Assembly (NCBI GenBank): GCA_017499595.2
Contig: CM039005.1
Coordinates: forward strand, 3,224,001-3,288,000
Direction of reading: 5' to 3'
Origin: Psilocybe cubensis
Taxonomy: Eukaryota
Length of the DNA stretch: 64,000 nucleotides
Below the pieces are notes generated by a model. That model worked only from the letters and a program-made list of their open reading frames with translations. It made no database searches and was not told the origin of the DNA. The position numbers were made by a program, and so were the translations under genes. Shown in pieces: positions 9,189-64,000 of the stretch. The first letter of the stretch is position 1, and each line of letters starts with the position of its first letter.

Positions 9189-9220
<32 letters not shown>

Positions 9221-15605: not shown

Positions 15606-17294
15606 TCATCGGTTGTAAGATTTGGATATTCTGCCGAATTCTGGATGTTCCCTCTCTTGTGAGATTGAACGTCTATGAAGTATTATCTCGTTATCGCTTT
15701 CGATACTTATCTGTTCAGCAGCTTCAACTAGAGCAGAATGATAAGTTTCATTAACGTTTTGAGTTTCGGGAACAACACCACCTTTTTCAGCGATGTCTTC
15801 ATCCAGTTTACGAAAGACTGTTTTCTTCCACACATTTGCAAGGTCGAAAAGATTAGTATTGCGCTTTCGCGATACTATCCAACGACTTCCGAGTAGTCCT
15901 ATCTTCCTCAAATCCGGTACGAACTCAGTTTCTCCGTCCACAAGGATCTGTGTGAACAGCTCCGGGCGAACATCATCGAGGTCGTGAACGTAATTTGGAT
16001 CTGGTTTGATAAGGGGTCTGGACGAGTCTGCACTATACAGACCTTTCTCGGCATGTTCATACCATGCCGACCAGTACTCGGTAACAGTTTTTCCAAGTTC
16101 AGCAGCTGAAAACCAATTCCATACCTGATCAAACCTGGTTTTAAGTACAAGAATGGATTCGTCGTGCTCTGCGACTCGTAAAGCGAATCGCTTTTCCCAA
16201 CGTTCTTGTATATTCTTCTTACACCAAGACATGACTAGGTTTTCGGGATAACCGCGCATCAAATAGAGAGCGTTAAGGTCTCTAATTGCTCCGATGTAGA
16301 TTTCCTTGGTACTACATAGCACGGCTAACCTGGATAACTCTCCAATGTAGACGCCACGTTTGACGTCCAAAGGATGATGTGATACCCATGGAACTCGTTC
16401 TCGGTTGTTTCCTGTCTTGACAAATGGCTTCCAATGAAGTTTTCCAGACTCCTTGAATATGAAAGCATCGAGAAATTGACATCCCGACAAGGAAACAGCC
16501 CATTCGATAACACAACCATCGAACTTTATTGTTTCTTTAATAAGATTAAGTGCAAGTGCTTCGGACTCGGCGTAAACAATTGCGAAACAATCGTCGATGT
16601 ACCTTCCATAGAAGGCCACGTTTGGGTGGTCTAAGATTTTTGACATTATTTCAAAATGGGCTCCAAAGAGGTTAGCAAGGTCCGGAGAATCCGCGACGCC
16701 CATTGCAAGGCCATTTTTTTGTCTAAAATATCTAGACCCATGTTGTGTTATCAATTGCGTATTGCCAATCTCGATAGCACGTTTAAAGATGCCCAATTTA
16801 ACCAAGTTATTCTCTAACGAATTTGGTTTAATATGGGCTAATGCAGTGTTTTCTTCCGAAGTGTTGAGTAACCATTCCTCGTACATACTACAAACGATTT
16901 CGATGCACGAGTCCAACGGGATATTGGGATAGAAAGCAACTACATCTCCAGTGACAAAATACCATTGTCTTTTGGAGTCTATACGCAATTGGCTTAATCT
17001 CGTAAAGAGATCCTTCGTTCCGTGTATGATTGAAGGAGTCGATTTAATAATCGGCTTAAGCTCTTTTGATACAAACTTGGCGGCGGGATTAAATACTACA
17101 GAGTGACACGGAATTATGGGCCTAAATCCAGTAGGTTTCTTATGGATTTTAGGTATACCATGAAATTGAGGATATTTGAACGATGATCCGTCTTCCGGTA
17201 CATTCGATAGAAAGAATCGAGACAACCCAAGTTCAAATAGAAACAGATGTTCATCTAAGCTTATTCCCCCCCAAAGGGGGGGCCTTCGTTGCAT
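15606..17294 (-). CDS. Penelope-like reverse transcriptase, N-terminally truncated; the first 13 codons come from the adjacent unit terminus
   Basis: FHGIPKIHKKP..RPII, VTGDVVAFYPNI, QKNGLAMGVADSPDLANLF, RYIDDCF, FLD, and thumb SHHP..KRGVYIGELSRL..RGYP. Confidence 0.88.
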   Translation of the reverse strand: MQRRPPLWGGISLDEHLFLFELGLSRFFLSNVPEDGSSFKYPQFHGIPKIHKKPTGFRPIIPCHSVVFNPAAKFVSKELKPIIKSTPSIIHGTKDLFTRLSQLRIDSKRQWYFVTGDVVAFYPNIPLDSCIEIVCSMYEEWLLNTSEENTALAHIKPNSLENNLVKLGIFKRAIEIGNTQLITQHGSRYFRQKNGLAMGVADSPDLANLFGAHFEIMSKILDHPNVAFYGRYIDDCFAIVYAESEALALNLIKETIKFDGCVIEWAVSLSGCQFLDAFIFKESGKLHWKPFVKTGNNRERVPWVSHHPLDVKRGVYIGELSRLAVLCSTKEIYIGAIRDLNALYLMRGYPENLVMSWCKKNIQERWEKRFALRVAEHDESILVLKTRFDQVWNWFSAAELGKTVTEYWSAWYEHAEKGLYSADSSRPLIKPDPNYVHDLDDVRPELFTQILVDGETEFVPDLRKIGLLGSRWIVSRKRNTNLFDLANVWKKTVFRKLDEDIAEKGGVVPETQNVNETYHSALVEAAEQISIESDNEIILHRRSISQEREHPEFGRISKSYNR

Positions 17295-18100
17295 TGGTCC
17301 TCCTGTTCAGAATTCCGAAAATCTGATGCCAGATTCGGATTCCTCGACCCCGAAAACCCCCAAATCCACTTTCAAAATATTTTATTTTGTACATACGGAG
17401 GTGCTACGTAATTAAATGTGTAATTTACGGAGGCCGGCCTCCATCTAAAAATAACTTTTGACAGGCACTGGAGGCCGGCCTCCGTCTAAAAATAAATTTT
17501 TGACAGGCACTGGAGGCCGGCCTCCCGCCTGTCTCCTGATGCCAGCGCTCGCTGTCCCAATGCCAGCGCTTGCCGTCCCGACACTTGCGCTCGCTGTCCC
17601 GACGCCTTTGCTCGCCGCTGCGTGTTATTGCGCCACCACCCCCGGGCCGCTTCTGCCGCCGCGGCCTCCACTGGACGCCTGTCGTTCAGCTGTCACCGCC
17701 TGTCGTTCAGCCGTCACCGCGTGTCATCCCGCCGTCACCGCGTGTCAACCCGCCGTCGCCGCCTGTTGTCCCGCCGTCACCGCGTGTCGTCCCGCCGTCA
17801 CCGCGTGTCGTCCCGCCGTCGCGTCTAATCGCCGCCCACCACGACACGCACTCTGCTGCGTGTCGTTGCACCGCCACCCTCGGGCCGTTTCTGCCGCCGC
17901 GGCCTCCACTCGTCGCCTGTTGCTGCCGCCGTGCCGCCTCCACTCGCCACCTGTCGTCCTGCCGCCGCCTCCACGCGCCGCCCACAACGACACGCACTCT
18001 GCTGCGTGTCGTTGCACCGCCACCCCCACGTAGCCGCACTCGCTGCCGCCACCGCCGCCGACACTCGACCCCCAGAGTCGCGTTGTTTGTCCTTGCTGTT
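17255..18100. repeat. Terminal module A: C7-AAA-G7 hairpin, three GGAGGCCGGCCTCC palindromes in 42-bp repeats, 21-bp GC-rich minisatellite; candidate transposon end
   Basis: Directly visible. Identical copies start at 34827 and 55172 and a paralogue at 27954. Element class unresolved. Confidence 0.75.
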
Positions 18101-18499
18101 GCCAAGGAAATTCAAACTCCGCAACGTTCACAAACAGTATAGCAAATCCGTTCCCCGACATCACACTTCCCCTTTAGCCGTCTCCACCCAGCTCCACCTC
18201 AAATACGACGATTCAAACGGAAGGGAAAAGAAGCTCAAAACGCTTAAGGAGTGTGGGGTACTTGGTGGATAGCGAATCAGGATCAATTGGGGAGGGGACG
18301 ATGGATTGAGATGTCCAGTGAGTGCTCTAATTTTCTCTCCACCGTTCTCTCATGGAAACACATGAACCACGACCACACTCTCCCCTCCCTCTTCCATTGC
18401 TTGCACCCAGCACCATCACGTTCCCACCCTTCACAGGCCCACGCAAACATGTTGTCTGACACCTTGGGCTTGGTGCGGATGGTGGTGGCCAGCGCAATA

Positions 18500-19640
18500 A
18501 CGAGAAAGAGAGGTTCAGGCGCCGGGAAATGGTCAAAATCGCCTGTTGGCGAGCTCTTCGCGTCATCCTCTTTGCCACAACATGGAATCTGGCCTCCAGC
18601 TCCGTCCTCCACGTCATCTATATCGCGCAAGCAGACGGAGGAGAGTATAAGTGTGGCGGATATGGACACGCATAGGCAGCGTGAGGCGCAGTGGATGGGG
18701 ATCCTGGCCTCGTCGTTGACTCTGTCGTTCGAAGCGCTGCCTCCGTCTGGGTCTGGTGCATCGCTTTCGTCATCTACGTCTTCGTCTGTGCTTGGGGTCT
18801 GCAACATCATTCAACCCTCCGTCTCTCATCGCATCTTCATCATCATCATCTTCTATCCGCCACCGGCGGTGCATCCTCGAATGCAAATGCGGATGCGGCA
18901 CTGAGGCGGTCGAAGAAAGTGAGGAGGTTGTTGTTGGACGGTGTGCCTTCGTCGGTGCGGTACCTCGTCTGGTCGTTTTTGACGGATGGGAAAGGGAGGT
19001 GTGTGCCGGGTGTGTATAGGCAGCTGTGTGCGCGGGGATGGGGTGGCGGGGCCCGCGCGGGTGAGAGGGGGGTTGAGAAGGAGAGGGTGAGAGAGGAGAC
19101 GGAGAGGGATGTGAGAGATGTTGTCAGGGTTTTGATTGGGGATGGTGGGGATTCCGATAGAGGTGTTGGTGTTGGTAAGGATGGGGATGGGGAGGGTGAT
19201 GGTGAAGATGGGGAGAGAAGAAGGGTTGAGAAGGAGAGGAGAGAGAGAGAGCGCAAGGCGCTTAGTTTGTTGCAGGCGTATTTGAACATGGTCCCTGATG
19301 TTGTATATGAGCGCGGTAAGTTTCTCCTTCCTTCCTTACTTTGTTTTTTTGATTGTGGATTGATAATTGTTGGGCGAAATGACAGGTCTGACGGAGATCG
19401 TTGCGCACCTCCTACTACTCGCACCGGAGGAAGACGCGTTTTGGATCTTTGTGTCGGTTTTGGATGCGCATCTTCGGCCGTATTTTGCGACGGGGCGGGT
19501 TGTGCTGTCTCCTGTGTCATCGTCTGGTTCTTCACCTTCGTTGGCGTCTCATACCGCAGCTTCAGGGGCAGAGACGACGACGACGCAGATGGAGGTTGAC
19601 GCGGGGTTGCTTGTTAAGGCGCTCGAAGCGAACAGGGGTT
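18500..19640 (+). pseudogene. Fragment of a Rab-GAP/TBC-domain gene (frameshifted, truncated, intron retained)
   Basis: DTHRQREAQWMGIL (one frame), RRSKKVRRLLLDGVPSSVRYLVWSFLT..LLQAYLNMVPDVVY (another frame), intron GTAAGT(19316)..GACAG, then LTEIVAHLLLLAPEEDAFWIFVSVLDAHLRPYF..MEVDAGLL. Confidence 0.8.
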
Positions 19641-22408
19641 CTGTTTTCGGGTCGTTTTGCAGGGTCCGATTTGGGATCTGCAATCTTCCTCCTCCGCTAA
19701 GCGAGATATTGGTGTATTTCTGTACACTGTATACCCCCTGTCGTCGTGCAGTGTGCTAATGAAATATAATTTCATTGTATTTGCTAAAGATCAGTTCACG
19801 ATAGACATGAAAAGACGAGTTTCGTGATAAACACTTTTGTTATCGATTCTGAAATCCAGGCAGCACAGAAAAGAAAAGTAATCGAAGGTTTACTCTCAGT
19901 GCAACTACACTCACAAAAATCAGAAGAGTAGATGCAAACTGCACCCACAGAATAGGAGACGAGCACAAAACAGCTACACCCATTGCAAAGCAGTCCAGTA
20001 TTCACGGCAAACTCGCCAAACCGCCTCTACGTGAACTCTCGAGCTCTAGCTTCAAAAATTTGCGTCTCAATTTTGGTACAGTCCTCAATTTTACGTTGCT
20101 TAATTAAGCTAACAAAATACGAAGCACCGAATTCCAGACGTTTTAAACTGCATTTCGGACGGAAGATGCAGATGGGGAGTTGTTGCATCGCAATGCAATA
20201 TATCCTGCCGTTTGTGAAATGTAAATGTGCATTTGCTACTTGGTGAGTTGCACTCCTCGATCTTTCTATTGTCGGGTCTTGGAGCTGACATATACTACAC
20301 TACTGTACTCTTCTAGGTGTTGTATTCGTACGTATTCTGTGTTCTAGTGTTCGTGTCGATTTGCGCATCCATCAGGATATTCCCTTTCAAACCCATCATC
20401 ATGACCTCTTGCTCCCCAACCCATGCCTACTCTTCCTCAAACGCACCACTCAATCTTCACCCCACAGCCAGTAGAATCCATACGTGTGTACATCGCCACG
20501 CATCCAATCTTCGTATAGATAATTGCGGGTGACAGTCACTTTAACAAGCAAAATGACATGGGATTATGCGAGTCGGCCTGCCTATGCACAATTCCTGTGG
20601 GGGTGCATGTCAGCGATGTTGAGCATCGCATGTCCAAGTCCTCAACCCTCTTCTAAACGGTTCTGGAATCTTCTCAGGAAGGGAGGTGATTGAGTAAGTA
20701 CAAGTTACATTTTTTAAAGGGTCCTGGAATGACGTCTAGATAGATGGCTGGATTGGATTGGACAAGGGTGATGGTAGTGACCACAACAGAGAACAGGGTA
20801 GAAAGGACGAACATTTGGGAATGGTGGTGACTAACCGTAGGCCGTTATTTGAGCTTATATTCACGGATGTCAGTTCTAGTCTGGATGCTGGATTGATTTG
20901 TCAACAACACATTTTCTGTACCTAATGCAGCTAATATCAAGCATCTTCCTGACTGCCAATTTATCAGACATTTTCACAAGCTATGTTTGTTGGCCTCGTC
21001 TTCACCTTGTGAACAAACACGTACTTCCCGTCGATTCCGAAGAGCGTAGACGTCGATAAAATCCTCTGCTTCCTGCTCAAGCTGGCGTTCGTGTTCACCC
21101 TCACCCTCTTCTTGTGCTCAGCGGGTTAGGTGGGTTAGCTTGTGTTGCTTACCCATACACTGTCTTCACCTCCGACAGTCTTCACGTCAACGCCCCCTCC
21201 TCATCAACCTACAGTTGCTGCAAAACAACAAGGACACCGTCAGCGACCTTTTTTTCGTATGACGAATCTCTCAGCATCCCTCATCAGCACCTCACGTCGC
21301 ATCCATGTACGCTGTCAGTAGCCGTCGCTCACCTTTTTGGATCAACGTGAGATGGGAATGCAAGTCTTGAGTGTTACATCGCGTCTGGTGTGTCTCTCAG
21401 TATGTCCAAGCGTCATCAGCGGCTCACTCACCGTGCATTCTCCAGCTACACTCGCATCGACGGGCCTGTGTTGTGTGCTGTCAGTACCCATCCTTGAGCA
21501 GAAACACCCAGCTCACCTTTTTGGATCAACACACCGGCCGTTACATGAGATGGGAATGCAAGTACAGGGGACAACTTGGTTCTAAGAAAAGAAGGCGGTG
21601 AGTACAGTTACACACATTGTTTGCATGCTTGGCCTCACTCACCGTGCATTCTCCAGCTACTCGCATAGACAGGACTGTGGTGTGCGCTGTCAGTAAAGTA
21701 TGCGCTCCGTCTGTATAGTTGCATTCAATGCACGTATTCACAGTCAATACTTATTCAAGTATTTAGTGTCATCTATCTACTATCCATATTCACATTCACG
21801 AACCGGCCAACTATGAACTCTACTCACCGCATCGCAATCTCTCAAGCACATTCCAAAACACCTACGCACACAATTACGCAAACTCGACTCGAGGAATAAT
21901 TACACTTACCACACGGCAAACTCGTTCACGTACATAGGACCCTCTCATTCGTCTTCGTTCAACCGTATCCATCTTTTGAACAACAGTGCAAATATCTGCC
22001 GTTATTCTATTTAGAGGCTAGACTAGAACACGGGACCGGAACAGAAACTTGGGAAATGCGATTGGAATTGAATGGAGTCAAGTTTTGGGCAAGGAAGAGC
22101 AAGTCCGGATGAGATAGGAGTTGTTTGGATGGCTCGGAAGGTTGTGCTGGGTAGACAAGTCTAAAAAATAAGTGTCCAATGAATATGAGTATGATACTAC
22201 TCTCAAAAACCTGTTTCACAGCATTCAAGTGTTTCTTTTAATATTGTGCTTGATTACAGGCACTTATTCATATGCAAAGTTGACTCGAACATTCAAGGTT
22301 GTTTCCTCAAACATTACTCGATTACTGGGCATCGTACAGGGACTACAAAACACCCGCAAATGATGTATTCCAGGGACAGACGTCAATTTGAGAGTGAGGA
22401 CTAATTCA

Positions 22409-22642
22409 TCACCATACAATTATAACAACACAATGTAACGCCAACACCACAAAGCACATATTAGCCTTGGTTAGGGTTAGGGATTAGGGTTGGTGATGAC
22501 CACAAAAATACAGATTAGGATGGTTTAGGGTTTAGGTTTTAGGGTTGGTTGGGATTTGATAATACCATAAAAGCACAGATTAGGCTGGTTAGGGTTGGTT
22601 AGGGTTGGTAAATACAAATATATGTAGCAGGTTAGGGTTGGT
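22409..22642 (+). repeat. Degenerate ~60-bp tandem repeat containing TTAGGG-type motifs
   Basis: Three variants of aaagcacagattaggctggttagggttgg. Copies start at 39981 and 60326. Confidence 0.7.
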
Positions 22643-22999
22643 GTGTACTATGTACCAATGTATCCACAATTTTTGACATGTCCGACTTTCCTCAACACCG
22701 CAAAACTTAATTTTCACATTCAATCAAGTACTATAAATACTATTCTATCTATTCAGTGCTTCAAACTTACCACAGAATGTTGCAGACAATGAAAATGTGG
22801 GATATACGCAATTTGAAGACCCGGCACAAATATTTCAAAAGTATCGCCATTTCCTCATCACAACGCACTGCCACCTCTTCAACTACGCATTCCATTATCT
22901 TCAAACGCACCTAAACACAATACTTTGCCGCAATGATGCTGTGAGCCGAAGGAAAATTAGCACCACATACATCTCCTCCTCCCCCAAGTCACGAAATTA

Positions 23000-25360
23000 C
23001 GCAATTTCAAACATTTGCTGCATCTAACTGACATTTAAACATTGCATAAATGAGACGGGTACCTCCGAAGGCAAGATGTAAAGAAGCTGGATGCAAGTCA
23101 ATCGAAGTTGAACATGTATAAAAACATTACATTCCGTTTAGACGCACCTGGGCACAAAACGAGGAAATCTGGGTCTGCCATGAGGATCATGAATAAAATG
23201 AAGTTATACATTGGAGGAGATTATGTGAGATAAGATAAACGAGTCACTCACACGGCATCCAGATGAAAATTGGGACTGGCATTCGTTAAGCGCCCAAAAC
23301 GTCTCCAAGACGATACTTTCATATATTTAACACATAGCATCTCTATTTCCCCAAAATCAGTGACAAAGCAGTGCATTAGGAAGGGCAGAGGGATACATAC
23401 ATGATATACAGAGCTACAAGCCAGCTCCATGAACTTTGCAAGGAGGATGATGAGATCAGCGGATGCATGTCATCCGGTCTACTCCTCCAGCGCCAATTCC
23501 GCGTTTCTAGTGAAAAAAACACCGTTTCCTCGCATCTCGGGCAGTAATCACGTCATGCTGTCGTCAATAGACAAATGCCGTGAATATTCATACGAGATTG
23601 ACGGAGACATGTTGATTGCAAGAATAGACTGAACTCAAGGTACGTGAGACACATACCTCTCAGTTCCTCTCGGTTCTCAACCTTAATCGTGGTTATGTAC
23701 CGTATTGCATGAATAGGACGCAATATACCAAAGTCTCCTTGTGAGCGATGGGTATAGAGTAGAGAGTGTCTTTTGCTAAGCCACACAAAGCGTTCATTGT
23801 TACTGAATTATACACTGATATTAAAGTTTTAAATGGGCTTTTGTTAGGTCAAGCGTCATCCATAGAAATGAGATATGCACTGGCTGACTCTTGAGCCACT
23901 GAGCTCACCGTTGCGCGCTTCGATGCTCTTTATTTCTTTGAACAATCAAAGGTACTTCCTGAAAAACTGATTAAAACAACTATTTTTGACTGTTTCACAG
24001 TGTTTATAATATATTCAAGCACTTCAGGAGTACGGTTGCAAAACGACAGGGAGAGTGGGCTCTAGGTGAGTCTTTCAAGTTCCACTTTTGACCGCTCCCG
24101 CCCAGGAATCGTCTTCTAAGCATCCATTCGGAGTGGGGAACTGATATTACTCGCTATTCTTTCTCTCCTAGATGAAGGACTCCTTTTGAGCTGTCGTGCG
24201 CTGGTTGCAACTCACTGACGTTCTCGTCCTGGCCTTCGAAGATGATATGGGTGTTCTGTATGTCAACATTGTTCTGACAGTCTGAAATTGCGCTGGAAAT
24301 TCGAGTTGAACTGCGAAGCAATGAGCGGGTGTCAGCACAAATGCATTATCAAGGGGATGTAACTCACCGTCGCAGCCCACCACAGTTGAACACCTCGTCA
24401 GAACCATTGTCAACGGGACAATCAACATCACGGCTCACCGTTCGGTCAACATTCTGGGTGCCGCGCGGGTGCCGTGTTTGTCTTTGGGAGGAAAACTGTG
24501 CAACGGAAAAGGCGGAGTCAGTACGAGTGCGTCCATGAAGGGTTACAGCTCACCGTGGAGGTCACTCTGCGTTGTCATGACCTGCGGGGCACGTCGTCAC
24601 TGCCGTTGTTGACAAGAAAGGCAGAAACTCAACTTACCAGATGCCATTGACTCCACCAACGACGAGGGATCACCGACTGCCGACAAGGTGGGGGTGGACA
24701 TGACTCGAGCATGTCGTTGACGTGCTGGTGTTACGTGGCTGCGATTGGAAGGCGTCAGCAACATCCCGCCGTCAAGAAAGCACCGCTCACCATATCAAGA
24801 CTGGACACCGAGTCCTTGTCATTGTCATCAGTGCTGCCATTGACAGAGTACTGCGGCTTACCATTGGTTTCAACATTCTGGGCGTCGTCTGCCTGTCGTG
24901 CACGTCTTGCGAGGTGGAAATGCGCATCGTCAACGCTGCTCTCGATAGATACCGTCGGGCCCACAACACGGACATGCCATTCAATGCGCACAGTACTCAC
25001 CGCGCCGTTGTGTTGGGATGCCAGAGCGTTAGGGTCGTTCTGTCCAGGTGCGTCGTCCGCATTCTAGAAAGCACTACACGGTAAAGAGGGGTCAGTCCCG
25101 GCGTTTCAGAAGGGATACACCTCACCGTCGTGTCGCGCTCCATTCTGCATCCTCAAGTCTGTCAAACACACCGTCAGCGCCGTTGTTGACAGCAGACACA
25201 ACAGCCCGCTTACCATTCCCAAGCAGCCGCCATGCGAATCCACAAACAATGGGGGGAAGAATTGGAAAGAGGCCAAGGCTGAGGAGGCAGAGAAGAGGAG
25301 GGGATGAGGCTTGAGGGGAATGAAGAAATCCAGCAAGGTGCGTGGTCTTTATATACCCGT
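23000..25360 (-). pseudogene. Probable intron-rich gene or gene relic, product unknown
   Basis: Closely spaced minus-strand GTGAG/GTAAG donors (e.g. 25213, 25125, 25000, 24861, 24367, 23251) and TATATAAAG at 25355-25347. No recognisable domain. Confidence 0.35.
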
Positions 25361-27953
25361 GTCGGTTCTAGCACTAGTGTTACTAGTACGCCTTGTTGCA
25401 TGTCGTATGTACTGAAAATACAGATTTTTTTTTTCGTTTCTGTGTTCGCTTAGTGTGGTTTTGGGTTACGCGAGTGCAGATTGGGTCTTGAGATTGGGAA
25501 CTGAATGGTTCCCCAAGGTGTAACGTTGGAATAACAAGAATGCGAGGGCAGGGTGGTGTGCGTAGTGCACATATTGTTTGGATAAATCATGTGTATTGCG
25601 AATCCGGGTGTTCATTCTGTTCATGTGATACGTTCGATAGGAAACTCGTTCATGTTGCATCCATTTGAGTCGTGCAATCAAAGTGAGTATCGATGTAATC
25701 CATCTCCCAGTGCTCAAGTGGTGATATAGCTCAAACTCTTCAGAATCGCACCATGCACAAAAAACAAGAGTCGATAAAATCACCACTGAATCTCTCGCAA
25801 CCATCTTCAAAATCAAGAAACATTCAATGACTCGGGAACAGGTACGTACACATAGCCCTCGAACCATATGTACTTGACGGTGAACTTGCGTTCTGGCACT
25901 CCCGGTGTGCGGACATTTGCTTTGGAGTCGATACGGGAAATCCATCTTCTGCACAGCGACAAATTGAACGCCGCGATTCCTTCTAGCAAATCTGACGTTA
26001 ACCGTAGCCGAGAGTGTTTGGGATAGTGTAGATACGGATCCGAATTGAAGGGAAACGATTGGAATGGGGGTGAATGTTGATTCGGGAGAGGAGGCGGATG
26101 TCCGGTTGGGTTGGATCTGGTTGGGGAATTTGAGATGTTCTGTTGGCTGGGTGGTTGGGGTGGGTGAGGTAGGCCTATGTAGACTCCTGTCAGATATGGG
26201 TATAGGTATGTGAGTGCTATTTATACTGTTATTTGCATCGTGTGCAAAAATGCGCATTCTCGGCGCTTAACTGATGGTGATTCGAAAAGCAAAGTTGCAC
26301 ATTGCACATCGGGCACAGTATTTTTCAGAGACCTCTGTACAGTTAAGTTAATACTAATACATCTAATTAGGGGTTAAACTACATTGACAACGATGTATTC
26401 TAGGTAAAAACGTCATTTGAGAGATGAGGGCATTGAAATCATGACTTTGCCCGACAATACGAACTTAGACAAAGATTTCCGGCCAATAACCCTTTATTCA
26501 GGCATTAATAGCAGTCCTACAGCACACCAAGCATACTCCAATGCTCCAAGTGCCGGAAAAGACGCAGAATCGACGTAGAACGACGCGCCACGTCTACTGC
26601 ATCCCATACATCCTCGAGAGCCGATGTTGTTGCTCTCATTTCGCGGACCTTCTAGGTTGTGTAACAGCAGTTTAGCCGAGCCAAATAGGTCCCTGTTAGC
26701 TTCCGAAAAGACCAGCAACGAGAAAATACATTGGAATTAGCATGGAATTGCGACATGGGAGAGTGGGAGGATGTGGACATGTACGTGAGTTCAAATTTTT
26801 AATGAAATTTTTGTGATCCCTCACTTGGAACGGATGAAGCGAGTAGTACAGGGTGTAATTTATAGTCCCATAATGGATATGCAGCTGTGTAATGGTTTTG
26901 GAAGTGAGGTATATACACATTTCTGTCTGATTTTGTTGAGAATGTATTCGGGCGCTTAATACTTTTTGACATCTGCAACTTTGCTCAGTCGTGCAGCGCT
27001 CGATTCAAACATTGTACAAGGTACTGTACACTACAGTATACATCTCCAATACTCAAAATCTGCAATAAATATGTCCAGACAACGAAAATGGGTGTTTTAC
27101 GTGCATTCACACCTCAGCGGGAACATGTCAAAGTTTCAGTCATTTCCGCTCCACCACGGACCGTCAACTCTTCAACAACGTATCCGAACATTTATAGAAG
27201 TATGCTAAACCCTATAAAATAGCATAAATGATGCAAACGGCCTCGGTACGTCTGCCACGTCGTTTCTAGGAGCTTGCAAGGTATGTGACCGAGTACGTCT
27301 TCCAGAGACGTTCTGGGCTCTTGAGAACCGAATTGAAACGTTATTCGTTAAACGAGCAGTATTGTAACAGTCTATATTAAGGTCTGTAAGGAATGAAAAC
27401 GATTGAAAGCACGTAAACTGATGAATCGGGGGAGAAGGAAGATGTCAACGTTGTGAACATCTTAGAGTTTGTTTCTTGTTGTATTCACTTGCGCTCGGTG
27501 TGGTGTAATTTATATGTCCTGGTACAGGTTACTAGCTACACGTATGTGGTATGTACTGTGTCAAACTGTAAACTGTGTGGAAATGGAGGTTTGTGGGGCA
27601 TAATTCATGTTTACATTCAATTTCACTTCAAATTCAACTTGTTTATGTAACAACGAATGCATTGACTAATCCTATCCATATTTACTGGTCTATAGATCTT
27701 TTAAAGCTATGGTAAACGCCCAAACTCTCCGGAACTTCATGCCACGTCATTGGTTTTCCTCCAATCGTCTCGCAGTTTCACCTCAAAATCAAAGTTATTA
27801 TGGCGCGGAATAGCCTAAACACTAGCCGCATTGGAGCTAAACATGCCAGTGGGTCAATCTAAGCTCAAATTTTTCACATAGAAGCCGACCAAGGGGGCGG
27901 GAGCTTGTATACAGTATGTTTCACCATACAATTATAACAACACAATGTAGCAC

Positions 27954-29610: not shown

Positions 29611-29827
29611 ACACCTCGGCCTTGCTGTACTGTAATTTTGTTAGATTTTTTATAACTAGTCATCTTACCCTGATATCAACTTGTATATATCTCACGCGAG
29701 CTCTCTTGTGTAGACACCAAAAAATAAATTTATATGACATTTTGAACAAAAAAACACGCATATATCTACATATTTTTGTTAGAATGGGCTATTCTTAAAT
29801 GAAAAAACACTTACATTGACAATGTAA

Positions 29828-30560: not shown

Positions 30561-30627
30561 GGGGAGCGAGCACCGAGCGAAGCGAGGTGCGAGCGACTAT
30601 TTAAACTGTGAGTTAAAATGAAAGAAG

Positions 30628-30691
30628 GCCAGAGGGCTGTTGGGGGATCCCAACAACCAGCCCTTTCGTCTTTATAGACTCTTCAGTGGCT
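30628..30691 (-). ncRNA. Type I hammerhead ribozyme (copy 2)
   Basis: Same core and stems as 14813-14877, with a variant stem III tip. Confidence 0.88.
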
Positions 30692-53333: not shown

Positions 53334-53976
53334 GAGTGCAAACGATAAGCGAGAAGCGAATTAAAAAAAGGAAAGAGAAAAAAACAGAGAGGGTGGGTGT
53401 ATGCGCCAAAAGGGTGAATATATGCGCTTCTAATCGGAGGGTTCAAGGTCAGGTAAGCTGTCTGGGGTAGAGGACCTGGAGAAGAGAGGAGAGCTGAGAA
53501 TATCGTCAAGGCGGGCGTGAAGTCCAGACAAAATAGCAGGGCTAAGAGAGGTGGTAAAAGCCAGATTATCAATGCGGCGAGACAGAGTAGCCAGACAATC
53601 TTGTAGGTCGCGAACGCGATCAGCCTGGTCGTGTAGGTAACGCAACTGTCTTTCAGCGGAAGCGAGAAGGTCTCTGGTATGTGAGATTGACCGTTGACAG
53701 TCTATAACAGCAGCAGTAAGTCGCCGAAGGGTATCAAAAGATGCACCCTGGTTGGAAGCAATACGCAGGGTTTCTTCGTGCAACAAGAGGTCTCTTTGCA
53801 AAAAAAATAATTGCCAAGAGTAGCGGTCACAAGTGTCGGTACAGGCTTCGATATCCTGCTGGATGGGCAGGATCGAAGGGGAACGAGGTAGTCCAGGCAG
53901 TTTGGGAAACGGTGGTATTGAAATGCCAAAAGGCGATGAGAGAGGATGTTTTGAATGTGTTAGAGTTCCTTCTTGA

Positions 53977-54149
53977 TGTTAGGAGGAGACCCGGAGACGA
54001 GGCGGGAGAGAGAGACGAAGGACCAGAACGTGTTGGGTGTGCTAACAAAGAAGGAACTGAGGCTACGTAGCTACGGGTGTGTCTACAAATACTGTGTGAT
54101 ATGTGACTACAGGCACGTGTGTGTGTCTACGTTAGAGGGAACTCTAACA
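53977..54149 (-). repeat. 5' LTR (173 bp)
   Basis: Identical by eye to 47724-47896. Confidence 0.95.
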
Positions 54150-54521: not shown

Positions 54522-55171
54522 GGGGAGCGAGCACCGAGCGAAGCGAGGTGCGAGCGACTATTTAAACTGTGAGTTAAAATGAAAGAAGGCCAGAGGGCTG
54601 TTGGGGGATCCCAACAACCAGCCCTTTCGTCTTTATAGACTCTTCAGTGGCTATTCTTAGAAGGAATGTTCTAGACATCCGATGACAGCGCGTGAAGTGA
54701 TGCTGCGCAGCTGTCATGTATCTTACCGACTATCACAAATCTGTCAATGTTTATTGTCAAGTTAGACAGGTCTCTGATGAACAGAGTGTCACGGGTCGAT
54801 GTGGCACATGGTAACCTGTCAAAAGTGGATCCAACACTTTTGTTCTTTGACATCGTGGGTTATTGACTGTGATGTGAATCACATGGATATAGATTACTCT
54901 GGTTACGTGGCTCCGAGTAACCGCGACATGGGAATATTCACATGTCTAGAGTATAAATAGCTTACCTGGGTCCTTACCTAACAATCAAACAATAGAATGA
55001 TTGATTGTTGTGAATCTTAATTGGACAGTTCATGATCCGGTCCATCAAAAATGTTTCCACGGTACTAAGGAACTTTTCCCGAAGTACTAAGTAACTTTTC
55101 CCATGTACTAAATTAGATCCGGCCCTTCACAATCACATGCCGTTCGGAAGTTCACACGCCTACCTTACTTC
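54522..55171 (-). mobile_element. Penelope-like element copy 3, non-coding 3' 650 bp only
   Basis: Matches 30561-31210, then switches to the unit terminus. Confidence 0.88.
54589..54652 (-). ncRNA. Type I hammerhead ribozyme (copy 3)
   Basis: Identical to 30628-30691. Confidence 0.88.
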
Positions 55172-58100
55172 CTAAGCTTATTCCCCCCCAAAGGGGGGGC
55201 CTTCGTTGCATTGGTCCTCCTGTTCAGAATTCCGAAAATCTGATGCCAGATTCGGATTCCTCGACCCCGAAAACCCCCAAATCCACTTTCAAAATATTTT
55301 ATTTTGTACATACGGAGGTGCTACGTAATTAAATGTGTAATTTACGGAGGCCGGCCTCCATCTAAAAATAACTTTTGACAGGCACTGGAGGCCGGCCTCC
55401 GTCTAAAAATAAATTTTTGACAGGCACTGGAGGCCGGCCTCCCGCCTGTCTCCTGATGCCAGCGCTCGCTGTCCCAATGCCAGCGCTTGCCGTCCCGACA
55501 CTTGCGCTCGCTGTCCCGACGCCTTTGCTCGCCGCTGCGTGTTATTGCGCCACCACCCCCGGGCCGCTTCTGCCGCCGCGGCCTCCACTGGACGCCTGTC
55601 GTTCAGCTGTCACCGCCTGTCGTTCAGCCGTCACCGCGTGTCATCCCGCCGTCACCGCGTGTCAACCCGCCGTCGCCGCCTGTTGTCCCGCCGTCACCGC
55701 GTGTCGTCCCGCCGTCACCGCGTGTCGTCCCGCCGTCGCGTCTAATCGCCGCCCACCACGACACGCACTCTGCTGCGTGTCGTTGCACCGCCACCCTCGG
55801 GCCGTTTCTGCCGCCGCGGCCTCCACTCGTCGCCTGTTGCTGCCGCCGTGCCGCCTCCACTCGCCACCTGTCGTCCTGCCGCCGCCTCCACGCGCCGCCC
55901 ACAACGACACGCACTCTGCTGCGTGTCGTTGCACCGCCACCCCCACGTAGCCGCACTCGCTGCCGCCACCGCCGCCGACACTCGACCCCCAGAGTCGCGT
56001 TGTTTGTCCTTGCTGTTGCCAAGGAAATTCAAACTCCGCAACGTTCACAAACAGTATAGCAAATCCGTTCCCCGACATCACACTTCCCCTTTAGCCGTCT
56101 CCACCCAGCTCCACCTCAAATACGACGATTCAAACGGAAGGGAAAAGAAGCTCAAAACGCTTAAGGAGTGTGGGGTACTTGGTGGATAGCGAATCAGGAT
56201 CAATTGGGGAGGGGACGATGGATTGAGATGTCCAGTGAGTGCTCTAATTTTCTCTCCACCGTTCTCTCATGGAAACACATGAACCACGACCACACTCTCC
56301 CCTCCCTCTTCCATTGCTTGCACCCAGCACCATCACGTTCCCACCCTTCACAGGCCCACGCAAACATGTTGTCTGACACCTTGGGCTTGGTGCGGATGGT
56401 GGTGGCCAGCGCAATAACGAGAAAGAGAGGTTCAGGCGCCGGGAAATGGTCAAAATCGCCTGTTGGCGAGCTCTTCGCGTCATCCTCTTTGCCACAACAT
56501 GGAATCTGGCCTCCAGCTCCGTCCTCCACGTCATCTATATCGCGCAAGCAGACGGAGGAGAGTATAAGTGTGGCGGATATGGACACGCATAGGCAGCGTG
56601 AGGCGCAGTGGATGGGGATCCTGGCCTCGTCGTTGACTCTGTCGTTCGAAGCGCTGCCTCCGTCTGGGTCTGGTGCATCGCTTTCGTCATCTACGTCTTC
56701 GTCTGTGCTTGGGGTCTGCAACATCATTCAACCCTCCGTCTCTCATCGCATCTTCATCATCATCATCTTCTATCCGCCACCGGCGGTGCATCCTCGAATG
56801 CAAATGCGGATGCGGCACTGAGGCGGTCGAAGAAAGTGAGGAGGTTGTTGTTGGACGGTGTGCCTTCGTCGGTGCGGTACCTCGTCTGGTCGTTTTTGAC
56901 GGATGGGAAAGGGAGGTGTGTGCCGGGTGTGTATAGGCAGCTGTGTGCGCGGGGATGGGGTGGCGGGGCCCGCGCGGGTGAGAGGGGGGTTGAGAAGGAG
57001 AGGGTGAGAGAGGAGACGGAGAGGGATGTGAGAGATGTTGTCAGGGTTTTGATTGGGGATGGTGGGGATTCCGATAGAGGTGTTGGTGTTGGTAAGGATG
57101 GGGATGGGGAGGGTGATGGTGAAGATGGGGAGAGAAGAAGGGTTGAGAAGGAGAGGAGAGAGAGAGAGCGCAAGGCGCTTAGTTTGTTGCAGGCGTATTT
57201 GAACATGGTCCCTGATGTTGTATATGAGCGCGGTAAGTTTCTCCTTCCTTCCTTACTTTGTTTTTTTGATTGTGGATTGATAATTGTTGGGCGAAATGAC
57301 AGGTCTGACGGAGATCGTTGCGCACCTCCTACTACTCGCACCGGAGGAAGACGCGTTTTGGATCTTTGTGTCGGTTTTGGATGCGCATCTTCGGCCGTAT
57401 TTTGCGACGGGGCGGGTTGTGCTGTCTCCTGTGTCATCGTCTGGTTCTTCACCTTCGTTGGCGTCTCATACCGCAGCTTCAGGGGCAGAGACGACGACGA
57501 CGCAGATGGAGGTTGACGCGGGGTTGCTTGTTAAGGCGCTCGAAGCGAACAGGGGTTCTGTTTTCGGGTCGTTTTGCAGGGTCCGATTTGGGATCTGCAA
57601 TCTTCCTCCTCCGCTAAGCGAGATATTGGTGTATTTCTGTACACTGTATACCCCCTGTCGTCGTGCAGTGTGCTAATGAAATATAATTTCATTGTATTTG
57701 CTAAAGATCAGTTCACGATAGACATGAAAAGACGAGTTTCGTGATAAACACTTTTGTTATCGATTCTGAAATCCAGGCAGCACAGAAAAGAAAAGTAATC
57801 GAAGGTTTACTCTCAGTGCAACTACACTCACAAAAATCAGAAGAGTAGATGCAAACTGCACCCACAGAATAGGAGACGAGCACAAAACAGCTACACCCAT
57901 TGCAAAGCAGTCCAGTATTCACGGCAAACTCGCCAAACCGCCTCTACGTGAACTCTCGAGCTCTAGCTTCAAAAATTTGCGTCTCAATTTTGGTACAGTC
58001 CTCAATTTTACGTTGCTTAATTAAGCTAACAAAATACGAAGCACCGAATTCCAGACGTTTTAAACTGCATTTCGGACGGAAGATGCAGATGGGGAGTTGT

Positions 58101-61100
58101 TGCATCGCAATGCAATATATCCTGCCGTTTGTGAAATGTAAATGTGCATTTGCTACTTGGTGAGTTGCACTCCTCGATCTTTCTATTGTCGGGTCTTGGA
58201 GCTGACATATACTACACTACTGTACTCTTCTAGGTGTTGTATTCGTACGTATTCTGTGTTCTAGTGTTCGTGTCGATTTGCGCATCCATCAGGATATTCC
58301 CTTTCAAACCCATCATCATGACCTCTTGCTCCCCAACCCATGCCTACTCTTCCTCAAACGCACCACTCAATCTTCACCCCACAGCCAGTAGAATCCATAC
58401 GTGTGTACATCGCCACGCATCCAATCTTCGTATAGATAATTGCGGGTGACAGTCACTTTAACAAGCAAAATGACATGGGATTATGCGAGTCGGCCTGCCT
58501 ATGCACAATTCCTGTGGGGGTGCATGTCAGCGATGTTGAGCATCGCATGTCCAAGTCCTCAACCCTCTTCTAAACGGTTCTGGAATCTTCTCAGGAAGGG
58601 AGGTGATTGAGTAAGTACAAGTTACATTTTTTAAAGGGTCCTGGAATGACGTCTAGATAGATGGCTGGATTGGATTGGACAAGGGTGATGGTAGTGACCA
58701 CAACAGAGAACAGGGTAGAAAGGACGAACATTTGGGAATGGTGGTGACTAACCGTAGGCCGTTATTTGAGCTTATATTCACGGATGTCAGTTCTAGTCTG
58801 GATGCTGGATTGATTTGTCAACAACACATTTTCTGTACCTAATGCAGCTAATATCAAGCATCTTCCTGACTGCCAATTTATCAGACATTTTCACAAGCTA
58901 TGTTTGTTGGCCTCGTCTTCACCTTGTGAACAAACACGTACTTCCCGTCGATTCCGAAGAGCGTAGACGTCGATAAAATCCTCTGCTTCCTGCTCAAGCT
59001 GGCGTTCGTGTTCACCCTCACCCTCTTCTTGTGCTCAGCGGGTTAGGTGGGTTAGCTTGTGTTGCTTACCCATACACTGTCTTCACCTCCGACAGTCTTC
59101 ACGTCAACGCCCCCTCCTCATCAACCTACAGTTGCTGCAAAACAACAAGGACACCGTCAGCGACCTTTTTTTCGTATGACGAATCTCTCAGCATCCCTCA
59201 TCAGCACCTCACGTCGCATCCATGTACGCTGTCAGTAGCCGTCGCTCACCTTTTTGGATCAACGTGAGATGGGAATGCAAGTCTTGAGTGTTACATCGCG
59301 TCTGGTGTGTCTCTCAGTATGTCCAAGCGTCATCAGCGGCTCACTCACCGTGCATTCTCCAGCTACACTCGCATCGACGGGCCTGTGTTGTGTGCTGTCA
59401 GTACCCATCCTTGAGCAGAAACACCCAGCTCACCTTTTTGGATCAACACACCGGCCGTTACATGAGATGGGAATGCAAGTACAGGGGACAACTTGGTTCT
59501 AAGAAAAGAAGGCGGTGAGTACAGTTACACACATTGTTTGCATGCTTGGCCTCACTCACCGTGCATTCTCCAGCTACTCGCATAGACAGGACTGTGGTGT
59601 GCGCTGTCAGTAAAGTATGCGCTCCGTCTGTATAGTTGCATTCAATGCACGTATTCACAGTCAATACTTATTCAAGTATTTAGTGTCATCTATCTACTAT
59701 CCATATTCACATTCACGAACCGGCCAACTATGAACTCTACTCACCGCATCGCAATCTCTCAAGCACATTCCAAAACACCTACGCACACAATTACGCAAAC
59801 TCGACTCGAGGAATAATTACACTTACCACACGGCAAACTCGTTCACGTACATAGGACCCTCTCATTCGTCTTCGTTCAACCGTATCCATCTTTTGAACAA
59901 CAGTGCAAATATCTGCCGTTATTCTATTTAGAGGCTAGACTAGAACACGGGACCGGAACAGAAACTTGGGAAATGCGATTGGAATTGAATGGAGTCAAGT
60001 TTTGGGCAAGGAAGAGCAAGTCCGGATGAGATAGGAGTTGTTTGGATGGCTCGGAAGGTTGTGCTGGGTAGACAAGTCTAAAAAATAAGTGTCCAATGAA
60101 TATGAGTATGATACTACTCTCAAAAACCTGTTTCACAGCATTCAAGTGTTTCTTTTAATATTGTGCTTGATTACAGGCACTTATTCATATGCAAAGTTGA
60201 CTCGAACATTCAAGGTTGTTTCCTCAAACATTACTCGATTACTGGGCATCGTACAGGGACTACAAAACACCCGCAAATGATGTATTCCAGGGACAGACGT
60301 CAATTTGAGAGTGAGGACTAATTCATCACCATACAATTATAACAACACAATGTAACGCCAACACCACAAAGCACATATTAGCCTTGGTTAGGGTTAGGGA
60401 TTAGGGTTGGTGATGACCACAAAAATACAGATTAGGATGGTTTAGGGTTTAGGTTTTAGGGTTGGTTGGGATTTGATAATACCATAAAAGCACAGATTAG
60501 GCTGGTTAGGGTTGGTTAGGGTTGGTAAATACAAATATATGTAGCAGGTTAGGGTTGGTGTGTACTATGTACCAATGTATCCACAATTTTTGACATGTCC
60601 GACTTTCCTCAACACCGCAAAACTTAATTTTCACATTCAATCAAGTACTATAAATACTATTCTATCTATTCAGTGCTTCAAACTTACCACAGAATGTTGC
60701 AGACAATGAAAATGTGGGATATACGCAATTTGAAGACCCGGCACAAATATTTCAAAAGTATCGCCATTTCCTCATCACAACGCACTGCCACCTCTTCAAC
60801 TACGCATTCCATTATCTTCAAACGCACCTAAACACAATACTTTGCCGCAATGATGCTGTGAGCCGAAGGAAAATTAGCACCACATACATCTCCTCCTCCC
60901 CCAAGTCACGAAATTACGCAATTTCAAACATTTGCTGCATCTAACTGACATTTAAACATTGCATAAATGAGACGGGTACCTCCGAAGGCAAGATGTAAAG
61001 AAGCTGGATGCAAGTCAATCGAAGTTGAACATGTATAAAAACATTACATTCCGTTTAGACGCACCTGGGCACAAAACGAGGAAATCTGGGTCTGCCATGA

Positions 61101-64000
61101 GGATCATGAATAAAATGAAGTTATACATTGGAGGAGATTATGTGAGATAAGATAAACGAGTCACTCACACGGCATCCAGATGAAAATTGGGACTGGCATT
61201 CGTTAAGCGCCCAAAACGTCTCCAAGACGATACTTTCATATATTTAACACATAGCATCTCTATTTCCCCAAAATCAGTGACAAAGCAGTGCATTAGGAAG
61301 GGCAGAGGGATACATACATGATATACAGAGCTACAAGCCAGCTCCATGAACTTTGCAAGGAGGATGATGAGATCAGCGGATGCATGTCATCCGGTCTACT
61401 CCTCCAGCGCCAATTCCGCGTTTCTAGTGAAAAAAACACCGTTTCCTCGCATCTCGGGCAGTAATCACGTCATGCTGTCGTCAATAGACAAATGCCGTGA
61501 ATATTCATACGAGATTGACGGAGACATGTTGATTGCAAGAATAGACTGAACTCAAGGTACGTGAGACACATACCTCTCAGTTCCTCTCGGTTCTCAACCT
61601 TAATCGTGGTTATGTACCGTATTGCATGAATAGGACGCAATATACCAAAGTCTCCTTGTGAGCGATGGGTATAGAGTAGAGAGTGTCTTTTGCTAAGCCA
61701 CACAAAGCGTTCATTGTTACTGAATTATACACTGATATTAAAGTTTTAAATGGGCTTTTGTTAGGTCAAGCGTCATCCATAGAAATGAGATATGCACTGG
61801 CTGACTCTTGAGCCACTGAGCTCACCGTTGCGCGCTTCGATGCTCTTTATTTCTTTGAACAATCAAAGGTACTTCCTGAAAAACTGATTAAAACAACTAT
61901 TTTTGACTGTTTCACAGTGTTTATAATATATTCAAGCACTTCAGGAGTACGGTTGCAAAACGACAGGGAGAGTGGGCTCTAGGTGAGTCTTTCAAGTTCC
62001 ACTTTTGACCGCTCCCGCCCAGGAATCGTCTTCTAAGCATCCATTCGGAGTGGGGAACTGATATTACTCGCTATTCTTTCTCTCCTAGATGAAGGACTCC
62101 TTTTGAGCTGTCGTGCGCTGGTTGCAACTCACTGACGTTCTCGTCCTGGCCTTCGAAGATGATATGGGTGTTCTGTATGTCAACATTGTTCTGACAGTCT
62201 GAAATTGCGCTGGAAATTCGAGTTGAACTGCGAAGCAATGAGCGGGTGTCAGCACAAATGCATTATCAAGGGGATGTAACTCACCGTCGCAGCCCACCAC
62301 AGTTGAACACCTCGTCAGAACCATTGTCAACGGGACAATCAACATCACGGCTCACCGTTCGGTCAACATTCTGGGTGCCGCGCGGGTGCCGTGTTTGTCT
62401 TTGGGAGGAAAACTGTGCAACGGAAAAGGCGGAGTCAGTACGAGTGCGTCCATGAAGGGTTACAGCTCACCGTGGAGGTCACTCTGCGTTGTCATGACCT
62501 GCGGGGCACGTCGTCACTGCCGTTGTTGACAAGAAAGGCAGAAACTCAACTTACCAGATGCCATTGACTCCACCAACGACGAGGGATCACCGACTGCCGA
62601 CAAGGTGGGGGTGGACATGACTCGAGCATGTCGTTGACGTGCTGGTGTTACGTGGCTGCGATTGGAAGGCGTCAGCAACATCCCGCCGTCAAGAAAGCAC
62701 CGCTCACCATATCAAGACTGGACACCGAGTCCTTGTCATTGTCATCAGTGCTGCCATTGACAGAGTACTGCGGCTTACCATTGGTTTCAACATTCTGGGC
62801 GTCGTCTGCCTGTCGTGCACGTCTTGCGAGGTGGAAATGCGCATCGTCAACGCTGCTCTCGATAGATACCGTCGGGCCCACAACACGGACATGCCATTCA
62901 ATGCGCACAGTACTCACCGCGCCGTTGTGTTGGGATGCCAGAGCGTTAGGGTCGTTCTGTCCAGGTGCGTCGTCCGCATTCTAGAAAGCACTACACGGTA
63001 AAGAGGGGTCAGTCCCGGCGTTTCAGAAGGGATACACCTCACCGTCGTGTCGCGCTCCATTCTGCATCCTCAAGTCTGTCAAACACACCGTCAGCGCCGT
63101 TGTTGACAGCAGACACAACAGCCCGCTTACCATTCCCAAGCAGCCGCCATGCGAATCCACAAACAATGGGGGGAAGAATTGGAAAGAGGCCAAGGCTGAG
63201 GAGGCAGAGAAGAGGAGGGGATGAGGCTTGAGGGGAATGAAGAAATCCAGCAAGGTGCGTGGTCTTTATATACCCGTGTCGGTTCTAGCACTAGTGTTAC
63301 TAGTACGCCTTGTTGCATGTCGTATGTACTGAAAATACAGATTTTTTTTTTCGTTTCTGTGTTCGCTTAGTGTGGTTTTGGGTTACGCGAGTGCAGATTG
63401 GGTCTTGAGATTGGGAACTGAATGGTTCCCCAAGGTGTAACGTTGGAATAACAAGAATGCGAGGGCAGGGTGGTGTGCGTAGTGCACATATTGTTTGGAT
63501 AAATCATGTGTATTGCGAATCCGGGTGTTCATTCTGTTCATGTGATACGTTCGATAGGAAACTCGTTCATGTTGCATCCATTTGAGTCGTGCAATCAAAG
63601 TGAGTATCGATGTAATCCATCTCCCAGTGCTCAAGTGGTGATATAGCTCAAACTCTTCAGAATCGCACCATGCACAAAAAACAAGAGTCGATAAAATCAC
63701 CACTGAATCTCTCGCAACCATCTTCAAAATCAAGAAACATTCAATGACTCGGGAACAGGTACGTACACATAGCCCTCGAACCATATGTACTTGACGGTGA
63801 ACTTGCGTTCTGGCACTCCCGGTGTGCGGACATTTGCTTTGGAGTCGATACGGGAAATCCATCTTCTGCACAGCGACAAATTGAACGCCGCGATTCCTTC
63901 TAGCAAATCTGACGTTAACCGTAGCCGAGAGTGTTTGGGATAGTGTAGATACGGATCCGAATTGAAGGGAAACGATTGGAATGGGGGTGAATGTTGATTC
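55172..64000. repeat. Tandem array unit 3 (runs off the window)
   Basis: The ORF track recurs at +37917 relative to unit 1. Confidence 0.95.
56417..57557 (+). pseudogene. TBC/Rab-GAP gene fragment (unit 3 copy)
   Basis: Identical ORF translations to unit 1. Confidence 0.8.

Follow-up and report, generated by a model that had tools for sequence, protein, structure and literature searches.

A Psilocybe cubensis chromosome end apparently lengthened at least three times by a subtelomeric block with one fixed terminus on truncated Penelope-like elements

Growth of subtelomeres and the copying of genes between chromosome ends are usually ascribed to homologous recombination, and recombination-based amplification of subtelomeric DNA is known from the Y' survivors of yeast, from STEEx in fission yeast and from TALT in nematodes. 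Mobile elements have also been described at chromosome ends. Penelope-like elements that lack an endonuclease (EN-less elements), among them Coprina and Athena, show a known pattern of element, telomeric repeats, element. The Terminons of bdelloid rotifers have a 3' end made of a hammerhead motif and telomeric repeats and hold accessory open reading frames (ORFs) that are co-oriented, and some of them carry rolling-circle Rep genes (PMC6431247). In Paramecium, chromosome-end Helitrons lie with the 3' end toward the centre and have the C-rich strand as their sense strand, with satellites of ~44 nt standing 42-168 nt before that 3' end (PMC13085455). The present work concerns a chromosome end of the fungus Psilocybe cubensis, contained in 64,000 nucleotides of contig CM039005.1 (GenBank assembly GCA_017499595.2, positions 3,224,001 to 3,288,000 of the forward strand; hereafter the window). 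There, the same block of 14 to 17.5 kb appears to have been added at least three times, on each occasion with one and the same terminus, that of a repeat called T, set against a differently truncated Penelope-like copy (X, Y or Z). The analysis was made from sequence alone and covers one set of junctions in one assembly.

Layout of the chromosome end and the three junctions

From left to right, the window holds a resident arm, a healed break and three units, each seated on a Penelope-like copy with a reverse transcriptase (RT) ORF or what is left of the element:

1-14549: resident arm
14550..14717, plus strand: healed break, with telomere-type repeats and pieces of the Penelope element 3' end
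14718..17254, minus strand: copy X, 2.5 kb kept, with telomere-type repeats, a 3' region with a hammerhead-like motif, and an RT ORF cut at its 5' side
17255..30521, no strand assigned: body of unit 1, 13.3 kb, with T1, a TBC-type gene on the plus strand, a poorly coding stretch of ~8 kb, T2 and, on the minus strand, a truncated gene
30522-30560, plus strand: former telomere at the healed tip of the donor arm, (AGGGTTT)5.6, with an identical tract at 54483-54521
30561..34826, minus strand: copy Y, 4.3 kb, without ~35 codons and the 5' untranslated region (UTR)
34827-54482, no strand assigned: body of unit 2 with a long terminal repeat (LTR) element; 34827..47723 up to the insertion, tail 54150-54482
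54522..55171, minus strand: copy Z, 0.65 kb, 3' region only
55172..64000, no strand assigned: body of unit 3, 100% identical to units 1 and 2 over ~8.83 kb, to the window edge

The 18-mer CTAAGCTTATTCCCCCCC is found exactly at 17255, 34827 and 55172 in the 64-kb window and with one mismatch in two further copies at 27954 and 45526, while shuffled sequence gave no match (0/100 shuffles). Self-BLAST aligns 17255-30193 with 34827-47723 over 12,939 columns, and 17255-26083 with 55172-64000 over 8,829 nt at 100%, unit 3 ending at the window edge. When units 1 and 2 are aligned directly, there are no mismatches and a single 42-bp gap, which falls within the 21-bp repeat array. The similarity of these two units stops at 30193 solely due to the LTR retrotransposon in unit 2, past which unit 2 is again identical to unit 1, up to 55174. 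The first-pass annotation had described three near-identical units with one start base, and this is borne out by an exact 18-mer and by 0 mismatches over spans of 8.8-12.9 kb.

Three distinct junctions result, as the same annotation had said: the unit starts adjoin different truncation points of the element, with 2.5, 4.3 and 0.65 kb kept. At the first junction (J1) the microhomology is CT (2 nt) and at the third (J3) it is CTA (3 nt), in both cases against what follows in Y, the longer copy; these are the two junctions that could be scored at the nucleotide level, the second being J2. No target-site duplication or duplicated flank was seen at the unit junctions, in keeping with the earlier description of joins with a few shared nucleotides and no such duplication. 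By simple arithmetic, the chance of at least two and at least three shared bases is 1/16 x 1/64, or ~1 in 1000, which suggests that the joins involved pairing. The very last bases of the fixed end are kept at all three junctions, and the fixed end was therefore not trimmed.

Copies X and Y share 97.9% identity over 2,540 nt, with differences spread to within 80 nt of the junction, whereas the segment 54150-55174, which contains Z, is 100% identical to 30189-31213. Since X is distinct from Y and Z in this way, at least J1 must be a de novo join of the resident stub to a unit. Between X and Y, 2.1% of positions differ, some of them near the junction, and the units that follow have no mismatches, which argues that the joins were independent. 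Taken at face value, the sequence thus points to three independent joins of one terminus to retroelement stubs, rather than to one junction copied by unequal crossover. The earlier objection to such a crossover holds on two counts, the difference of X from Y and Z and the presence of the last bases of the fixed end at all joins.

More trivial sources of the junctions were also considered. A cloning or ligation artefact at the HindIII site (AAGCTT) was rejected, as the left partners have no such site and the shared sequence begins 3 nt before the cut. The Y/unit junction was rejected as native element sequence or a splice, as full-length relatives carry 35 different codons there. When annotated proteins were searched for any that run from T into the element, one protein was left from two candidates, and it is not led by T, and the sequence upstream of the truncated relative in the metagenome contig L010 is not T-like.

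The fixed terminus, the Penelope-like copies and the copied block

T occurs in the window in two forms:

17255..18050, minus strand: T1, fixed-end module of unit 1, with a C7-TTT-G7 hairpin and then AATAAGCTTAG
27954..29575 and again at 45526, minus strand: T2, a diverged T copy inside the units, with a C7-TTC-G7 hairpin, AATAAGC and CTAG

T1 also heads unit 2 (34827) and unit 3 (55172), and the left flank of T2 is non-Penelope DNA. Upstream of its hairpin (rightward on the plus strand), T1 has 170 nt of unique sequence, then 42-bp repeats, then G+C-rich repeats of 21 bp. Over the first 175 nt from the terminus, T1 and T2 are ~95% identical; the similarity fades within the repeats, near 18050 and 29575, and the sequences are unrelated beyond, with different numbers of the 21-bp repeat. 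The 42-bp repeats of both are built around the palindrome GGAGGCCGGCCTCC. On these features T is a discrete, satellite-bearing repeat of 0.8-1.6 kb. The minus strand is here the C-rich telomere strand, and the fixed end is its 3' end, in the same sense as the Penelope copies; it consists of a 7-bp G+C hairpin, 7 nt, and then CTAG in T2 or TTAG in T1. T has an 8-bp palindrome at its start, the 7-bp hairpin and 14-bp palindromes within, and as RNA its terminal 286 nt would fold at -111.3 kcal/mol (z -5.3). The 8-bp palindrome that opens T1 (17256-17263) is TAAGCTTA, and its counterpart in T2, TAGGCTTA, is non-palindromic. This difference may bear on the use of T1 and the non-use of T2.

Comparison of T with the Penelope element gave chance matches of 10-12 nt only, and comparison with the LTR element, the left arm and mid-unit DNA gave none. 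The T terminus had no match among metagenome contigs and none among prokaryotic genome contigs, no ribozyme or RNA family was found at it with Rfam, and no tRNA-like gene was found. T was also tried as an LTR or as a pseudo-LTR of the element and rejected on both, as it is without TG..CA ends and without similarity to the element 3' region.

The partners of T are more familiar. The ORF of Y (1154 aa) has 55 relatives, of which the best is P0001 from Psilocybe cubensis (1176 aa, 97% identity). Homology to the full-length P0001 begins near residue 36, which indicates that all three copies are 5'-truncated; the first 13 codons of the Y ORF come from unit sequence and are a chance reading. The DKN motif before the RT domain (D551, K552, N553) is invariant in 6/6 aligned sequences, and the Pfam family RVT_1 is matched by the ORF of X alone among the element copies, with an E value (7.1e-07) exactly at the curated cut-off. 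Neither the 562-aa ORF nor the 1154-aa ORF nor P0001 yielded a GIY-YIG endonuclease, RVT_1 being the only Pfam family matched among them; as the copy of Pfam used detects the family weakly, this absence is moderate evidence. The nearest Atlas clusters of the element ORF are basidiomycete and rotifer RT-like proteins, which is a lead only, and the element profile had no match among solved structures.

Telomere-type repeats stand directly before the element 3' end in all three copies (14718, 30522, 54483), and a hammerhead-like motif lies on the minus strand ~95 nt from that end (14813-14897, ~30629-30712 and ~54590-54673). The RAGATH-1 hammerhead model gives this motif 29.2 bits (gathering score 56.3; E 0.05), and at gathering scores Rfam finds nothing in the whole window. 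The motif core, CACTGAnGAGTCTATAAAGACGAAA, is identical in the three window copies and one base apart in L001 and L006, two of the 11 metagenome relatives. In two of these relatives, L002 and L005, the start codon is preceded by a like motif at a distance of 80-150 nt, and this suggests that the element RNA is terminally redundant. In L002, a 4.6-kb contig, positions 1-100 are repeated at 4494-4594, as is expected of a Penelope-like unit that is in tandem or was assembled as a circle. A degenerate telomere-like block is seen 100-200 nt past the stop codon (15421-15489 and 31235-31289); the same block is present in every metagenome relative (L001-L011) that reaches past its stop, and it is therefore a part of the element and no old telomere. 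Z is cut 22 nt before the position of this block. The marks of EN-less Penelope-like elements, as published, match those of X, Y and Z (PMC8557442, PMC13159263), which have every appearance of ordinary Coprina-type copies.

The resident end itself has a history of repair:

14313..14549, minus strand: 3' part of a CHAT-domain gene (Pfam CHAT, profile positions 213-288 of 289, E 1.8e-07)

The ORF of this gene reads into repeats at 14550, and the resident arm is broken within it. From 14550 to 14750, repeats, ~127 nt of the element 3' end, repeats, ~17 nt of the element 3' end and repeats follow one another before X, and a repeat with a 170-bp period spans 14550-14858. The pieces look like the products of repeated abortive terminal reverse transcription, and the resident end has thus been extended from its own 3' terminus, repeatedly, before the units arrived. 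The donor arm tells a similar story, in that its tract at 30522-30560 comes directly after a gene cut at residue 863 of 1075; the old telomere claimed earlier is thereby confirmed, as (AGGGTTT)5.6 at 30522-30560 and 54483-54521. The telomere-type repeat is mainly the 7-mer TTTAGGG, with some TTAGGG and a G7 run at the end. This 7-mer may be either the product of the species' telomerase or templated by the element, and the internal telomere-like blocks of element relatives are CCCTAA-like. Elsewhere in the resident arm, a protein-kinase domain fragment was recognised at 12172-12810 on the minus strand (Pkinase, E 2.1e-15), and recognisable domains are otherwise few.

Three features of the copied block need to be known:

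29831..30521, minus strand: truncated gene, the last 213 codons of 1075 aa, 92-97% identical to P0057 and cut at residue 863
19317..19385, plus strand: probable intron (GTAAGT..ACAG) of a RabGAP-TBC gene near T1, from the sequence and its ORF frames
47724..54149, minus strand: Ty3/Gypsy LTR retrotransposon, in unit 2 only, with 173-bp TG..CA LTRs that are 100% identical and the target-site duplication TGTAC

Within the truncated gene, a 53-nt intron (30134-30186, GTATGT..CTAAC..CAG) is kept in units 1 and 2, and the homologue P0057 reads across it. The gene has the same sense as a proposed read-through RNA, discussed below. At 19317-19385 the exon downstream begins at position 92 of the TBC profile, and the exon upstream is assigned to TBC by motifs only; judged by its sequence, an intron is very probably retained in this plus-strand gene as well. 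Since introns are retained, the block was not copied from spliced RNA of either sense. Among the 105 unit ORFs, Pfam gave one weak TBC match and two matches at E~0.007, well below the curated cut-offs, which were read as chance; the ORF at 25469-26266 had no homologues. In its make-up the block is ordinary chromosomal DNA and corresponds to the terminal 13.3 kb of another healed chromosome arm, together with the Penelope copy at its tip. The Ty3/Gypsy element has gag, protease, RT (RVT_1), RNase H and integrase and is intact-looking. Within unit 2 it sits where exon and intron of the truncated gene meet, and its insertion is either later than the duplication or the mark of a different template.

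How the end may have been extended

Any explanation needs a C-strand 3' end that coincides with the T terminus and pairing over 1-3 nt at arbitrary points of the Penelope element, at least three times over and with 14-17.5 kb brought in on each occasion. A possible course of events, which we put forward tentatively, is that the block was templated by DNA after a Helitron-type cut at T and was joined by microhomology. The end would have broken in a gene, been healed by telomere-type repeats and a Coprina-type retroelement, and then been lengthened at least three times. In each round, an uncapped, Penelope-terminated 3' end of the G-rich strand would pair, by 1-3 nt, with the outermost 3' bases of a single-stranded C-strand template, which ends exactly at the T terminus, and would be extended along it. 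The new end would again lie inside a Penelope copy, at a new point, and be ready for the next round. The template would most likely be a DNA strand released by the cut at T, made by a Helitron-type nuclease, and the joins would be polymerase-mediated, by a polymerase that may be the Penelope RT. A DNA template is favoured because of the retained intron, the anatomy of the terminus and the polarity. It is a more doubtful proposition that two unrelated end-seeking mobile systems cooperate here, a Helitron-type terminus giving single-stranded DNA with a precise 3' end and Penelope leaving uncapped ends that are extended along it, possibly by the Penelope RT on a DNA template; 13-kb blocks would then multiply without telomerase or homology.

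The HelSearch rule for Helitron 3' ends calls for at least 6 stem pairs, a loop of 2-4 nt, a spacer of 5-8 nt and CTRR (PMC4289320), and T2 fits it with a stem of 7, a loop of 3, a spacer of 7 and CTAG. A scan with this rule gave 30 raw matches in the window, many of which are repeats of one unit or overlapping parameter sets, and shuffled sequence (n=50) gave a mean of ~8 such motifs per 128,000 strand positions. The motif itself is therefore not rare; for it to end exactly on a repeat boundary has a chance of ~6e-5.

Several observations weigh against a Helitron-type cut at T. T1, which has the same hairpin and spacer and was used three times, ends in TTAG and fails the strict CTRR, while T2, with a perfect CTAG on the same strand and nearer the chromosome end, was bypassed each time, for which no signal-based model has an explanation. 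The canonical T after the 3' end is found in 0/4 junction types, the bases being A (J1), G (J2), G (J3) and G (T2). A 5' TC end of T is not recognisable, as the similarity of T1 and T2 fades in tandem repeats with no sharp edge, and the distal ends of the units begin GC.. and GA.. on the sense strand. RepHel, Helitron_like_N and PIF1 gave no match among the 105 unit ORFs or among 31 of the 64 listed left-arm ORFs (at least 75 aa). To our knowledge, no known Helitron reaction yields a fixed 3' end and a variable 5' end in head-to-tail chains. The T family is known from two sequence types only, the junctions are a single set from one assembly, and the locus has an RT that is proven to extend this same end, so that RNA-templated models stay in play. 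Of the one-ended transposition of a Helitron-like terminus that the first-pass annotation had offered, the 3' end is strengthened by the fit of T2, and the flanking T (0/4), the 5' end and RepHel in the ORFs scanned are wanting.

The strongest alternative, which we consider unlikely, is also the other model of that annotation. A read-through transcript of more than 14-17 kb would start in a terminal Penelope copy, cross the old telomere and then 13 kb of subtelomere on the minus strand, and have its 3' end at ..AAGCTTAG, at the T hairpin; it would be copied onto the chromosome end by the Penelope RT, which jumps between RNAs, each time to the 3' end of the following one, in a 3' transduction on a Terminon-like scale. 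The polarity is right for this, and a constant 3' end with variable 5' truncation is the signature of reverse transcription. Abortive RT products are already at hand at 14550-14750, microhomology at the extreme end of the template fits template jumping, and the end of T folds strongly as RNA. Moreover, EN-less Penelope relatives are seen in Terminons to move units of more than 40 kb, in chains with host genes between (PMC6431247). However, the 53-nt intron, which has consensus signals and lies on the sense strand, is kept in both units where it is visible. Unspliced RNA could still serve as the template, but that RNA would have to escape the hammerhead-like motif of the element and read on past T2 despite the same hairpin there. 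None of X, Y and Z has a 5' UTR, and a promoter is thus not supplied here; no poly(A) trace, ribozyme or Rfam family accounts for a precise RNA 3' end at T, and the Helitron-like terminus would be a coincidence. The read-through proposal is weakened by the intron, the hammerhead and T2, and it survives in the form of an unspliced RNA.

A two-step route seems less likely again. T would be a short non-coding RNA, a non-autonomous partner of the Penelope RT, which is copied onto the end; the T-tipped end would then invade T1 of the donor, and break-induced replication would copy the block. This accounts jointly for the fixed end, the microhomology, the retained introns and the copies with 0 mismatches, and it agrees with T being a discrete module at two unrelated flanks. 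Non-autonomous partners of Penelope-like elements are indeed known, but these share a 3' sequence with their element (PMC8557442), and T and the Penelope element have none in common. Nor is an addition of T only seen in the window, and each of the three rounds needs telomere loss, erosion and a new addition of T.

Ordinary recombination, as unequal exchange or as a roll-and-spread process like alternative lengthening of telomeres, giving a tandem array of a single junction type and followed by later deletions from the hairpin-rich start of T, is improbable. Subtelomere amplification in telomerase-poor cells is well known (PMC5700057), Y equals Z where both exist, the telomere tract has 5.6 repeats in both units, and the palindromes and hairpin of T could provoke breaks. 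Against this, J1 joins T to a different element copy (97.9%), which makes at least one join de novo, while two further deletions would have to stop on exactly one base; Y being truncated, there is also no ancestral junction present.

Very improbable is an assembly artefact in which block copies from different ends or nuclei were chained by the assembler: repeat-rich ends are hard to assemble and consensus polishing is also expected to give 0 mismatches over 8.8-12.9 kb, but each junction has a sequence of its own that reads must contain, J2 and J3 are both flanked by a unit tail at left and by a unit head at right and so imply tandem order locally, one unit holds a clean LTR insertion with its target-site duplication, and the three joins of T to Penelope would remain even if the order were wrong.

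Comparison with known systems

Y' survivors, STEEx and TALT, as cases of recombination-based amplification, share with this locus a tandem subtelomeric block of several kb and an internal telomeric tract in each unit (PMC5700057). There, units are joined via telomeric or homologous sequence and have one shared junction, whereas the window has joins without homology that are constant on one side and vary from case to case.

The likeness of X, Y and Z to Coprina and Athena is close, and takes in the RT with a DKN motif, the lack of an endonuclease and the hammerhead-like motif (PMC8557442, PMC13159263), as well as reverse-complement telomere-type repeats at the 3' end, 5' truncation and a seat on the repeats of a healed end (PMC8557442, PMC13159263). 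In contrast to the known alternation of element and telomeric repeats, the truncated 5' ends are here joined without telomeric repeats to an unrelated terminus, which brings 13 kb of host DNA with it. In the literature searched, of which the journal coverage was partial, no account was found of a fixed non-telomeric terminus on truncated EN-less Penelope copies, and nothing was found on Penelope in Psilocybe.

Terminons resemble the chain in that giant units with 5' truncation and an RT of Athena type stand at chromosome ends, linked head to tail and with host genes in between (PMC6431247). The first-pass annotation had offered a Terminon-like system as one of two models. As a matter of membership this does not hold, as the unit 3' end has neither a hammerhead nor telomeric repeats. 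It is a hairpin terminus, and the body behind it is a broken arm with genes on both strands and with introns. Two defining features were tested and are absent, and the chain is no Terminon.

Among fungal elements, the Helitrons of Agaricales (HELPO1/2 in Pleurotus) share with T a G+C hairpin near the end, after which come 5-8 nt and then CT[A/T]G, and they make no target-site duplication (PMC4289320). In many of their copies only the 3' end is intact, and captured host genes bring their introns along (PMC4289320); in Pleurotus, 18/37 are classed as 'truncated', the 3' end being intact and a conserved 5' end lacking (PMC4289320). Canonical insertion is between A and T, however, and none of the 4 flanks fits this here, where the copies form a terminal head-to-tail chain. 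The T chain is no canonical Helitron insertion.

With the chromosome-end Helitrons of Paramecium T has its polarity in common, and its 42-bp repeats lie ~170 nt from the end. Insertion of the Paramecium elements makes chromosomes longer and leaves telomeric tracts behind inside them, in unchanged polarity, as is seen here (PMC13085455). They also have defined 5' ends, telomeric repeats on both sides, a CCAA end and giant transposase ORFs (PMC13085455), whereas in the window there is no 5' end, no repeats flank the join, no transposase is in view, and the host is a fungus.

The joins described here are non-homologous, site-specific on one side and repeated, and this implies that unprotected ends can receive a terminus dedicated to the purpose. 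If this is true, fungi would have a third route of end extension in addition to telomerase and Coprina retrotransposition, and one by which subtelomeric genes could be duplicated rapidly. The system would then stand either as the first parallel in fungi to the chromosome-end Helitrons of Paramecium or as a fungal counterpart of retrotransposition on the scale of Terminons.

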